This document shows, one piece after another, positions 35,604-44,971 of a stretch of DNA of 64,000 nt (its first letter is position 1; each line of letters opens with the position of its first letter). Source of the DNA: Octopus vulgaris. Its lineage: Eukaryota. The stretch lies in contig OX597830.1 in the NCBI GenBank assembly GCA_951406725.2, positions 52,266,001-52,330,000 on the forward strand, given 5' to 3'. Made by a program: the position numbers and the translations under genes. The notes under the pieces are model-generated. The model ran no database searches and was not told the origin of the DNA. It worked only from the letters and a program-made list of their open reading frames with translations.

Positions 35604-35717
35604 AGACTGTAATAATGGAATGAATTCGTTAAAGTGTGTTAGTATTTGTGGAGAGCTTCAAAAATGGTTCCAGTTAAATATTTATTCACTTGAACGAAGA
35701 ATTTAGAATGTATTAAC
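35604..35717 (+). ncRNA. Conserved hairpin block, copy 1 (candidate pre-miRNA 35625-35698; alternative: duplicated exon)
   Basis: Three near-identical copies. TTCGTTAAAGTGTGTTAGTATTTGTGGA pairs with TCCAGTTAAATATTTATTCACTTGAACGAA. Confidence 0.45.
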
Positions 35718-35877
35718 AATGATGTCGGCATTGCTAACCGAGAACAAAAATGACAACAGCGAAACAACAACAAAACAACAACAACTGCAACAATAATAAT
35801 AATAATAACTATGATGATTATTATAATAATGATATTTATAATAATGCCAACAAAAATAACAACAATAAAAATGGAAT

Positions 35878-36260
35878 GAAAGCACTCCGTCGGTTACGAC
35901 GACGAGGTTTCCGGTTGATCCGAATCAACGGAACAGCCTGCTCGTGAAATTAACGTGTAAGTGGCTGAGCACTCCACAGACACGTGCACCCTTAACGTAG
36001 TTCTCGGGGATATTCAGCGTGACACAGAGAGTGACAAGGCCGGCCCCTTGAAATACAGGTACATCAGAAACAGGAAGTAAGAGTGAGAGAAAGTTGTGGT
36101 GAAAGAGTACAGCAGGGATCACCACCATCCCCTGCCGGAGCCTCGTGGAGCTTTTAGGTGTTTTCGCTCAATAAACACTCACAAGGCCCGGTCTGGGAAT
36201 CGAAACCGCGATCCTATGACCGCGAATCCGCTGCCCTAACAACTGGGCCATTGCGCCTCC
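35878..36260 (-). mobile_element. Full-length tRNA-derived SINE (family D)
   Basis: Head GGAGGCGCAATGGCCCAGTTGTTAGGGC...GGTTTCGATTCCC carries A and B boxes. The 3' part is shared with 53020-53200. Confidence 0.85.
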
Positions 36261-36351
36261 ACGAACAATAAAAATAATGATAAAATTAATAGCAATAATA
36301 AGAACCCCATAACAAAAACAAAACGAGAACGAAAATGTCAATGAAAATAAT

Positions 36352-36752
36352 TCTATTATAAGCACAAGGAGCTGAATTTGTGGAGGTCGAGGAAGTGGGG
36401 GCTAGTCGATTACATTGCCCTTAGTGATCAATTGGTTTTATTTTATCGATCCCGATATGATTAAAGGCAAAGTTGGAATTTGAACTCAGAACGTAAAGAC
36501 AGTCGAATAATAATAACAATAATACTTTGTTGTATAGGGACAAGGCTTGAAATTTTGGGAAAGATGAAGGGTTGCTTGATTACATGGACTTTAGAACTTG
36601 ATTGGTACTTTATCTTATTTTCATCGACCCCGAAAGGATGAAAAGCGAAGTCGGCCTCGGCGGAATTTGAATTCAGAACGTAGAGACGGGACGAAATGCC
36701 AGAAAGCCTTTTGTCCGGCCGGTGTGATAAAACATTCTGCTAGATTGCCATC
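36352..36752 (-). mobile_element. Two adjacent family B SINE copies
   Basis: GGAATTTGAACTCAGAACGTA near 36480 and GGAATTTGAATTCAGAACGTA near 36665. Confidence 0.8.
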
Positions 36753-37990
36753 TTAAAAAGAAGAAGAAGAAGAAGAAGAAGAAGAAGAAGAAGAAGAAGA
36801 AGAAGAAGAAGAAGGAGATGATGATGGTGATGATGATGATGATGATGATGAAGAAAGAAAGAAGATATATATATATATATATATGTGTGTGTGTGTGTGT
36901 GTGTGTGTGTGTGTGTGTGCATATATATATATATATATATATATATATATATATATATATATACATATATATATATATATATATATATAGTGTGTCTCTG
37001 TAGGAATGTATACATTCTTAGTTTTATACATTTAATGCAAGCTAAAGAAAATATTTGCTCTAGTTATATTTAACTCGTATAAAGTCGTGTTTGGATTTCT
37101 GGTATCCTCGCTTTTCCTTGCAGGAATTGTCACAAGCACATACATGCGCGCACGCACACAGACACACATTTACAGACACAAAAAAATACACGTGTATATA
37201 TATATTTATACATATATATATGTGTGTGTATGCATAAGTAAATATACATTATGTATATATATATATGCATACATAGACACACACAATGTATATACATATA
37301 CATATACACACACACACACACATTCTATATGTTATAAGTATCAAGATACGTAAACGTCTACGTATATGTATGTATGGATGTATAAGATATGCATACACAA
37401 TTATGTTCTAATAGATATGAACGTATACACGCACATATGTGCTCATGTATATGCATGTATATATACATATATATACATATATATGAACATATATATATAT
37501 GTGTGTGTCTGTGTGTCTGTGTGTCTGTGTGTACGCGTATGTGTGTGTATATACATATATAGACATGTGTGTATATAAATATATATATATTGACACAGAT
37601 GGATGGATGGACGAACGGATGGACACATATATTCGATGATAGTATCAAAAATGATAAAGAAAATAATGTCGAAAAGTCTATTTATTTCATATAATTTCGA
37701 AATTTCATGTGCGTTGCGGAGCTTAAAGATATAAATTTTAGGGCGGTATTTTACGACTCTTGCTTTTAAAGGATTTTGCAAAAGAGAATCGATTTGTGAC
37801 AATAAATGTAAAAACAAAATGAGGAACGGCAAACATGTCAAAAATTGATTTTCGCTCATTATTCAAAGGTCAGAACTTCAGATTTTAACAAAGTTGTTTC
37901 TAAAGAATTTTGCAAATAAAAGTATATCCCTAAAGACATATTTCGAAAAACGTGTGTAAAAAGTACCTTTTTCGCTCCACCCTTAAAATT

Positions 37991-38600
37991 CAGGCTGCGA
38001 TGGGTAAATTGTCGCCATATTATACTTTTAATTTTGTGCATGTGCATTGTTTAGTTTCGATTTTGTCGACTACACAGTTTAGTATGAACAGTTGGCCAGC
38101 GTCTGTGAGAAAAACAGCACCATGATGCAATTCACTCTGCCAGAAATTTGGAAAGGACATGCTGTACTGCTTGGCATTCGCGCCGGAAGCTCCAATACAA
38201 ACATTTCAGAGTGTTTGGGACAGTGCAATCTGCAGACATGTACCGAGCGTGGTAAAAATCAAACTTCCTATCAACACCATGGTGTTTGCAATGATCACTA
38301 GTGATGGCGACGTTATGCCTCCATTCATCTTTCCACGCGGCCCGAGACTCAACACGGAAGCCTACATCAAGTCCCTGGAGGAGATAGTGCTGCTCTGGAT
38401 CAAGAGGGTGACTGCTGGAAGACCCTATGTCTGACAACAGGACTCTGCACCATGCCACACAAACAGGAGAACCCAGCCATGGCTGTCAGACAATTGCTAC
38501 GAGCACATTACCCCTCACATCTGGCCACCTAACTCCCCAGACTGCAACCCCTTTGAGTATTATGTGTGGGGCGCAGATGAGTGCGAGACCAACAAAATTC
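37991..38600 (+). mobile_element. Internally deleted Tc1/mariner transposon of maT (DD37D) type
   Basis: MVFAMITSDGDVMPPFIF...PYV*QQDSAPCH...WPPNSPDCNPFEYYVWG, with 37 residues between the second D and the third acidic residue. Confidence 0.8.
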
Positions 38601-38805
38601 TTTGGTTTCAATGGCGTATGTGTTCCCCAGCTAGATGGGACGCCAGTCCATCGCAGCGTTACTCATTTTTGCCAGCTGAGCGGACTGGAGCAACGTGAAA
38701 TGAAGTGTTTTGCTCAAGAACACAACGTGTCGCCCGGTCAAGGAATCAAAACCATAATCTTACGATCATGGTGCTGACACCCTAACCACTAAGCCACGGG
38801 CCTAC
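38600..38805 (-). mobile_element. tRNA-derived SINE (family D-related)
   Basis: CTCATTTTTGCCAGCTGAGCGGACTGGAGCAACGTGAAATGAAGTG. Head GTGGCTTAGTGG...GGTTTTGATTCC on the minus strand. Confidence 0.75.
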
Positions 38806-42738: not shown

Positions 42739-43152
42739 ATTTCTTTATTGCCCACAAGGGTCTAAACACGGAGAGGACAAACAAGGACAGACAAAGGGAT
42801 TAAGTCGATTACATCGACCTCAGTGTAAAATTGGTACTTAATTTATCGAACCCGAAAGGATGAAAGGCAAAGTCGACCTCGGCGGAATTTGAACTCAGAA
42901 CGTAACGACAGACGAAATACCTATTTCCTTACTACCCACAAGGGTCTAGACACGGAGAGGACAAACAAGGACAGACAAACGGATTAAGTCGATTATATCG
43001 ACCCCAGTGCGTAACTGGTACTTATTTAATCGACCCCGAAAGGATGAAAGGCAAAGTCGACTTCGGCGGAATTTGAACTCAGAACGTAACGACTGATGAA
43101 ATACTGCTTAGCATTTCGCCCGGCGCGCTAGCGTGTCTGCCAGCTCGCCGCC
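42739..43152 (-). mobile_element. Family B SINE with tandemly duplicated 3' half and 15-bp TSD
   Basis: TSD TCTTTAAACTATATA at 42721-42735 and 43156-43170. B-box GAGTTCAAATTCC occurs twice. Confidence 0.88.
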
Positions 43153-43214
43153 TTATCTTTAAACTATATATAAGTATCACAATAATTTAACTTTTATATT
43201 GTGACCAAAATTAA

Positions 43215-43450
43215 GACGGTGAGTTGACAGAATCGTTAGGAAACCGGACAAAATGCTTAGGGGCATTTCGTCCGCCTTTACGTTCTGAGTCCAAATTCCG
43301 CCGAGGTCGACTTTGCCTTTTTATCCTCTGTAAAATAAGTACCAGTTGGGGATCGATGTAATCCTCGATAAAATAAGTACCAGTTGGGGATCGATGTAAT
43401 CGACTTAACCCTTACCACGAACTTGCTGGCTTCGTGACAAAATTTGAAAT
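43215..43450 (+). mobile_element. Family B SINE, head-to-head with the previous copy
   Basis: GACGGTGAGTTGACAGAATCGTTAG...GTTCTGAGTCCAAATTCCGCCGAGGTCGAC, with a small internal duplication. Confidence 0.82.
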
Positions 43451-43754
43451 CATATTGTGATTAACATCAGGAGTTTTGTAAATATATACATATACATACA
43501 TATCTATAGATATATAGATAGATATGTTTCTTTATTAGCCACGCTGGGCTGCACACAGACGGGACAGATTACAAAGTAGAGCTTTTTTTTGGTGGGGGGA
43601 GAAAATAAAATGTGGGGTAGGTTTTCGATGAAAAGGGATCGTAAAAAGGGAAGGAAGAAAAGAAAAAGAAAAATAGAAAAAGAAGGAAAGAAAAAAAGGA
43701 AAAAACGATCAATAGGGATCGTGTATCACAGAAATCTCATGATGTAAAGTGTAA

Positions 43755-44030
43755 TAGATAGATAGATAGACAGACAGGTAGATAGATCGATAGATAGATA
43801 GATAGATAGATAGATAGATAGATAGATAGATAGATAGATAGATAGATAGATAGATGATAGATAGACAGATAGATAGATAGATAGATAGATAGATAGATAG
43901 TTATATAGATAGATAGATGATAGATAGATAGATAGATAGATAGATAGATAGATAGATAGATAGATAGATAGATAGATAGATAGATAGATAGATAGATAGA
44001 TAGATAGATAGATAGATAGATAGATAGATA
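43755..44030. repeat. (GATA)n tetranucleotide array
   Basis: Directly visible. Confidence 0.95.
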
Positions 44031-44857
44031 TTGTGATCCAACTTCCTTTCACTCCGCTGGTCTGGTTATGTTTGATAGTATTCAGAAAGAACTCAAAGAA
44101 AGAAATCTCATTGTACTATGTCTACAACCTGAAAGGGCCCGTGCCCTCCCCTACGTCTCTCTTGGGAGACGTTCCTAATGTTTGGATGTAAAAAAATATA
44201 TGAAAGAAAATGTTTAAAGTCATTTTATTTTTGTTAAGTCCAAAAATGATTATCACAAATACTACTGATCAAATGTCTGTGCACCAGACTAGCTCGTTGC
44301 CTCTTAGAGTGACACCTGTTACAGGTAGATGCACACTAACGAGAAATGAAGTGCTTTGCTGAAGAGCATAACGCACCGCCCGGCCCGTGAATCGAAATCA
44401 GGAGCTTACGATCACGGTTGCAACATCCTAGTCACTAGACCACTCGACCGCACACCTTCATGTATGCGCGCGCGTACACACACATCCACACATAAATACA
44501 CGTGTATATGAATGTATGTATGCGTATGTTGTGTGTGTGTGCGTGTGTATATACGCGTGCGAGTGCGTATATGATATATTGATACACACACAAATATTCA
44601 GAGAATGACAACAGAATAAAACTGCGAGAGAGAGCGAGAGAGAGAGAGAGAGAGAGAGAGAGAGAGAGAGAGGTGGAACAGAAAGAAAGACGTTATAAAG
44701 AACTGGAACTTTAACTGTGGAAACATGCTGTGTGTCTCTGAGTGTGGGTCTTGTCCTGAAGAATGTAGGGTTTTTTCTTTTCATTTTTATTATACATTAT
44801 CTTTATTTTTATCTTATTTTATTCATTTATTTGAATGCGAAATTCTCGCTTTTTCGT

Positions 44858-44971
44858 AGACAGAACTAATGGAGAGAACTCGTTAAAGTGTGTTAGTATT
44901 TGCGGAGAGCTTCAAAAATGGTTCCAGTTAAATATTTATTCACTTGAACGAAGAATTTAGAATGTATTAAC
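44858..44971 (+). ncRNA. Conserved hairpin block, copy 3 (hairpin 44879-44952)
   Basis: See copy 1; the 3' arm is identical. Confidence 0.45.

Follow-up and report, generated by a model that had tools for sequence, protein, structure and literature searches.

A three-copy conserved hairpin block in the Octopus vulgaris genome as a candidate octopus-lineage microRNA cluster

A stretch of 64,000 nucleotides (nt) of the Octopus vulgaris genome (contig OX597830.1, positions 52,266,001 to 52,330,000; here called the window, in whose own numbering positions are given) carries three copies of a conserved block, which are best read, with a probability of about 0.6, as an octopus-lineage microRNA (miRNA) gene in three copies whose dominant product would come from the 3' (3p) arm of a predicted hairpin. 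The blocks are 114 nt long, lie on the + strand within 9.4 kb (copy 1, 35604–35717; copy 2, 39127–39240; copy 3, 44858–44971) and align without gaps, with pairwise identities of 106/114, 107/114 and 103/114 (90–94 %) and 13 variable columns. An exact 37-mer recurs at 35664, 39187 and 44918, again always on the + strand, where none was expected (100 shuffles). The gap-free alignment and the 37-mer confirmed the three same-strand copies, free of insertions and deletions in their core, that had been described in an earlier note made from the letters of the window.

Searches of the octopus's own genome (2.8 Gb) with the block DNA and with the peptide read from it each returned the same three places among the candidates scored; only the best candidates were scored, so that copy counts are lower bounds. 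In the 464 kb surrounding the locus, a profile search found no fourth copy, the next nhmmer match having an E value of 0.37. When two mismatches were allowed, the 22-mer of the predicted 3' arm had seven further matches, all with unrelated flanks (39–49/117 identical) and attributed to chance. Three matches from a pattern search of metagenomes were dismissed as chance in the same way (flanks 41–45/117 identical). No covariance model of Rfam 15 matched over the copies at the gathering score or among the 102 matches at E up to 10, nor was there an Rfam match in 300 of 400 kb of surrounding flanks. Small nucleolar RNAs (snoRNAs) have box motifs in register and, in the H/ACA class, two hairpins. 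Neither an H/ACA nor a C/D snoRNA was recognized in the copies, each of which has a single hairpin followed by ACA (ACG in copy 2) and no Rfam snoRNA match.

The minimum-energy fold of a 76-nt segment of each copy on the + strand is a 74-nt hairpin (35625–35698, 39148–39221 and 44879–44952), with energies of −21.3, −15.5 and −20.7 kcal/mol and z-scores against shuffles of about −4.4, −1.7 and −3.75 for copies 1, 2 and 3, respectively; copy 1 has 26 predicted pairs, and the basal stem of copy 2 is weak (C–C mismatch). Folds on the − strand were weaker (−12.9, −9.7 and −11.9 kcal/mol). The + strand hairpin proposed earlier for each copy is thus the best fold of that length in all three, but a poor one in copy 2, and the outer TAATG/TATTA pairing ascribed to it was present in the fold of copy 1 only and not in the consensus fold. 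The hairpin midpoint (35661.5) falls within 1 nt of the block midpoint (35660.5), which bears out the roughly symmetric conservation noted around the hairpin. A comparable centred hairpin on either strand was found in 48 of 3,000 complex 114-nt blocks drawn at random from the window (1.6 %). This figure is optimistic, as copies 1 and 3 served to tune the filter, which copy 2 does not pass.

The predicted register consists of 22-nt arms, a 12-nt loop and a 56-nt precursor. In copy 1 the 5' (5p, star) arm would occupy 35635–35656, placed by stem geometry and a UG at −14/−13, and the 3p (mature) arm 35669–35690; the latter begins with U and is the same in copies 2 and 3 (39192–39213 and 44923–44944, located by 22-mer matches). 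Setting the 5' cut at 35635 gives the UG at −14/−13 in copies 1 and 2 and a basal stem of about 10 pairs, the rule being roughly 11. With 22 + 12 + 22 nt, the predicted precursor has arms within the 20–27 nt and a loop above the minimum of 8 nt asked of miRNAs. Canonical miRNAs have at least 16 paired arm positions, and of the 22 positions here copy 3 pairs 18, and copies 1 and 2 pair 16 in their best fold and 18 in an alternative that lies 0.4 kcal/mol above it. According to PMC11701709, MirGeneDB 3.0 entries have arms of 22 ± 1 nt and pairing of 19 ± 1.6; the predicted arm lengths and pairing are within or at the low end of these values.

Variation was followed beyond the window in four of 24 listed sequencing runs (X1, X4, X6 and X8), with copy 1 as the reference. 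X1 (organism A) contained a 199-nt contig whose loose ends match the flanks of copy 3, X4 (organism D) contained contigs of copies 1 and 2, and X6 (organism F) a copy 1 contig with a depth of 2.2, the letters of which may hold errors. The contigs of X1 and X6 may derive from DNA and are uninformative on expression; about 6 % of X8, a raw RNA-seq run, held no reads for copy 1, a portion too small to test expression. Orthologues with copy-specific flanks were therefore seen under labels A, D and F, which we infer to be species other than that of the window, giving two or more species; because the orthologues are copy-specific, the triplication would, on that assumption, be older than the split from these organisms.

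The window copies and the related organisms together give 20 variable sites, 13 among the copies and seven new ones, although the table of differences apparently covers only sites at least 31 letters from a contig end, so that changes at the block edges are under-counted. One site lies in the predicted 3p arm, three in the 5p arm, two in the loop, six in the basal stem and eight in the flanks. The single 3p site (35688, position 20 of the arm) was seen only in the low-depth X6 contig. The longest run invariant across all records shrinks from 39 to 21 nt (35667–35687) and lies on the predicted 3' arm; the absence of sites from 35669–35687 has P = 0.017, with limits that were chosen afterwards. 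The 37-mer is invariant across the window copies but not in the related organisms, which have changes at 35666, 35688, 35691 and 35695–35697. Position 35640 is the only variable site inside the central duplex and falls on a mismatch, the change in copy 3 at 35649 creates a new pair, and two pairs are kept as G–U (35656 and 35697, mapped by hand onto the predicted pairs). Substitutions within the hairpin had been described as falling in the 5' arm and loop: the 3' arm, named beforehand, does hold only one of 20, but two of the five core changes break pairs of the basal stem. Because the relatives are close (two changes in 60 flank letters for copy 2 of X4), the comparison has low power either way.

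Zolotarov et al. (2022; PMC9699675) report 94 genes in 90 novel miRNA families for octopus, a gain of such families larger than any other known among invertebrates and mostly of single genes, and these numbers give a high prior for an octopus-specific miRNA gene. By the authors' own account, their list is an underestimate and it is unknown how the loci arose. Like the novel coleoid and Octopus families described in PMC9699675 and PMC11701709, the block occurs in this taxon, matches no older family and is common to relatives, and its predicted precursor is shorter than 80 nt, as stated for molluscs. Unlike those catalogued families, which are supported by reads, it is known here from sequence and a computed fold. 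A family of three copies would be possible but rare by the same source, where the 90 families include only four extra genes; paralogues among them are Novel-20-P1/P2 (Table S4 of PMC9699675). The cluster may itself be an already catalogued MirGeneDB family. A full-text search with an 18-nt piece of the 3' arm returned no paper, short motifs of the arms did not occur in the supplementary files of PMC9699675 that could be read or in seven files of PMC8125070, and searches by topic yielded no list of octopus miRNA sequences; none of this is proof of an unpublished family.

As a calibration, eight mir-2 hairpins (Rfam RF00047) above the Rfam cut-off were identified within 1.7 kb of the same genome (C1:107570240-107571891), with z-scores of −2.85 to −9.2 and 22–28 pairs; copies 1 and 3 (here z about −4.3 and −3.8; 26–27 pairs) are inside this range. 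Genome searches for mir-92 and mir-216 gave no match, which shows no absence. The mir-2 cluster resembles the three copies in its tandem same-strand hairpins, its invariant 3' arm and, for copies 1 and 3, its z-scores and pair counts. There is no sequence relation, however, and the mir-2 hairpins are spaced by about 100–450 nt, whereas the copies are 3.5 and 5.7 kb apart. The loops and flanks of mir-2 are variable, while the three copies have near-identical loops and about 20 nt of conserved flank.

Several observations weigh against the miRNA gene. That last difference is one of them, in that identity drops in the loop and flanks of four similar mir-2 paralogues but is kept in both by the three copies, so that a younger age or conversion is needed. 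Copy 2 (z about −1.8 in the calibration) is outside the mir-2 range, and its hairpin was equalled by 13 of 200 shuffles, is not the optimal fold of its 116-nt context and has basal pairs with probabilities of 0.00–0.04 in a 194-nt context. Hairpins under lenient settings are frequent, with 232 loci in the window. Among sequence features of processing, CNNC at +14 to +22 and the apical UGU are absent from the copies, the basal UG, present in two of the three window copies, is missing from copy 1 of X4, and position 9 of the predicted mature arm has no U; the basal UG, apical UGU/G and CNNC are common but not obligatory processing motifs (named in PMC6943042). The conservation statistics are marginal or weak, with P = 0.061 for at most one of 20 sites in a fixed 22 nt and P = 0.22 for an invariant run of at least 21, which is not rare in itself. 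Seven changes, mapped by hand, break pairs (35625, 35628, 35666, 35688, 35691, 35695 and 35696; five of them in the basal stem), and none of the 26 pairs has a compensatory change. Finally, copy 1 of X4 has seven listed substitutions within the block and three in about 130 nt upstream, and the block is no conservation island in that comparison. The miRNA proposal of the earlier note was nevertheless retained as the best one, on the strength of the centred hairpin and the single variable site among 20 in the 3' arm, but it is likely rather than established, given the marginal conservation (P about 0.06) and the stem-breaking changes.

Under the miRNA reading, the three blocks would be local duplicates of one element, transcribed from the + strand as the G–U pairs that work only there suggest. 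Drosha would cut near 35635 and 35690 and Dicer near 35656 and 35669, so that every copy would yield an identical predicted 22-nt product of the 3' arm, with copy 2 probably processed less well. The 3p arm would be loaded into Argonaute for seed-guided repression of mRNAs, the three copies may raise the dose of the product, and occasional gene conversion likely helps to keep them alike. If this is correct, three clustered copies together with dated orthologues would provide a concrete case of miRNA gene amplification and homogenization, and an addition to a known class that is possibly already in MirGeneDB. In a more speculative version, which we consider improbable, the blocks would be an uncatalogued miRNA family duplicated as cassettes, each carrying a separate 3' splice acceptor some 20 nt ahead of the hairpin; the splicing of a non-coding host would choose or dose the copy and conversion would keep the three in step.

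The surroundings of the copies and their shared letters bear on explanations in which the hairpin has no function. Apart from simple repeats and a dispersed repeat that precedes copies 2 and 3, the sequences up to 1.5 kb from the copies on each side have only two stretches in common: a 22-nt patch upstream of copies 1 and 2 (35568–35589, 21/22 identical to 39085–39106) and a 96-nt patch of 60 % identity in copies 1 and 3 (E 0.007). The flanks had been called largely diverged and are indeed mostly unalignable; because they share only such patches and repeats, the core, at 90–94 % identity, appears to be held at the nucleotide level. The copies are mosaic, copy 1 matching copy 2 upstream (in the 22-nt patch) and copy 3 downstream. 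At 35696–35697 the copy 1 orthologues of X4 and X6 differ from the window, in which copy 1 agrees with copies 2 and 3, and at 35640 X1's copy 3 has C, the window's copy 3 being equal to copy 1. Letters shared within the window but not with orthologues suggest gene conversion between the copies. An old tandem triplication whose core was homogenized by conversion, or a duplicated enhancer-like element with an incidental hairpin, would account for this mosaic, for the lack of compensatory changes and for the copy 1 block of X4 being no better conserved than its flank; it is nonetheless unlikely, as it leaves unexplained both a centred, miRNA-shaped hairpin with a background of 1.6 % and the coincidence of the least variable stretch with one arm. 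A small transposon (a miniature inverted-repeat transposable element, MITE) or a fragment of a short interspersed nuclear element has in its favour that the hairpin ends form a short inverted repeat and that transposon remnants are plentiful in the region. The hundreds of dispersed copies by which a transposon was to be known were not found, however; the copies, at least three, all lie within 9.4 kb and on one strand, and the unrelated flanks of the seven other 22-mer matches likewise make this origin highly improbable.

Tandemly duplicated exons, either alternative last or mutually exclusive, are a known class, and the blocks resemble them as local same-strand copies that start at a YAG after a pyrimidine tract. 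They differ in lacking a common stop, a good donor and a related protein and in being constrained at the nucleotide level. The pyrimidine-rich YAG described before each copy was found as far as the YAG goes, but the tracts are uneven: the 20 letters before the AG include 14 pyrimidines in copy 1 (16 at a tandem TAG), 10 in copy 2 and 13 in copy 3, and 3 %, 21 % and 6 %, respectively, of the 6,451 AG sites in the window score as well. Each block could begin a duplicated terminal or internal non-coding exon of a long non-coding RNA that is kept for splicing and makes no small RNA. Conservation does begin at the YAG in all three copies, and the tracts before copies 1 and 3, in the top 1–6 % of AG sites, persist in X1 and X4; because these tracts are otherwise unexplained, the non-coding exon stays alive, though we judge it quite unlikely. 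The tract of copy 2 is ordinary (top 21 %), the only donor with 7/9 matches sits 28 nt into the block and has no G at −1, A[AT]TAAA follows copies 1 and 3, whereas the 1.5 kb after copy 2 have none, and the X1 contig, from a run that may be DNA, passes unspliced through the AG. A miRNA inside such a non-coding exon is compatible with this account. A protein-coding version, in which an unannotated gene would have the blocks as duplicated exons, for example alternative last exons some 33 codons long, is very doubtful. All five core changes between the paralogues (35625, 35628, 35640, 35649 and 35661) are indeed third-position changes in the frame given earlier and leave the peptide unchanged, seven of the nine variable sites within 35623–35694 (combined by hand) are synonymous, including the pair-breaking 35688 and 35691, and the peptide had a protein-model 'recognition' score of 2812, above 2300, a value that 9 of 100 shuffled proteins also reach. 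Over 35608–35700, however, third-position sites number 9 of 18 (P 0.11), and those among the new cross-species sites 3 of 7 (P 0.43), with W>L, L>F, M>T and R>E/Q replacements; twelve codons without synonymous change are at odds with the diverged flanks. The TAG stop was confirmed to be missing from copy 2, and no good donor follows. At E up to 10, nothing in Pfam matched the peptide and the PDB gave one match (E 1.1); no candidate protein of 24–77 or 78–2000 aa shared three 5-residue words with it, in a collection that includes proteins labelled O. vulgaris. No cellular Pfam domain was present in the 127 window or 264 flanking open reading frames (ORFs) scanned after filtering, where short exons could be missed. 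The coding exon, the competing reading of the earlier note, has thus lost support, having no protein relative, no third-position bias at new sites and no good donor, although some excess of synonymous changes persists in the core.

Two apparent protein relatives were rejected. A phmmer search against 1.84 billion proteins gave three matches at E ≤ 0.001 (best 3.6e-13), each a sum of 4–13 weak repeats of at most 10.4 bits, in two repetitive proteins bearing Peptidase_S74 and one acyl-carrier repeat protein. A lead to the Metallophos domain (protein atlas score 0.88, under 170 shared features) did not survive direct tests: none of the 29 genome matches to the domain lay near the locus, the best of 10 genome stretches scored 34 and lacked the GDxHG residues, and the DNA alignment was in a different register, with 4.9 % of random stretches scoring equally.

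Two features resembling splice acceptors were observed near the copies. A TGTAGG-(A/G)-TTT motif, which contains a second possible acceptor AG, occurs upstream of all three (35569–35578, 39086–39095 and 44764–44773, about 35, 41 and 94 nt away). The stretch 42445–42470 resembles the acceptor-like start of copy 2 (pyrimidine-rich, then CGCAGACA) and has no hairpin block behind it; it was not picked up by the profile search and is probably a chance likeness.

In the wider setting, the 127 of 378 window ORFs scanned gave only transposon remnants and scattered weak matches near or under the cut-off, and the 264 filtered ORFs from 200 kb on either side of the window mainly mobile-element domains. 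Because no cellular Pfam domains were found, the cluster appears to lie where genes are sparse or inside an intron of very large size. About 190 kb downstream of the window, an ORF shares 99 % identity with a protein labelled Octopus vulgaris, which bears out the coleoid genome presumed in the earlier note. Transposon-derived remnants were found at 38435–38695, 52004–52702 and 62827–63534, comprising transposase remnants (DDE_3, E 2.5e-4; Transposase_1, E 3e-16) and a reverse-transcriptase fragment (E 2e-4), and one of the three falls between copies 1 and 2. Near-perfect, MITE-like palindromes of 34 and 32 pairs are located at 281–356 and 29945–30020, and a 260-nt inverted repeat (94.6 % identical; 12946–13205 and 15527–15786, about 2.3 kb apart) possibly represents the ends of a DNA transposon. 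A lone, diverged sequence resembling 5.8S ribosomal RNA (rRNA) on the − strand (49386–49531; 77 bits, E 2e-17), the only rRNA match in the window, is likely a pseudogene or part of a repeat. A 100-N assembly gap occupies 58872–58971, 14 kb downstream of copy 3.

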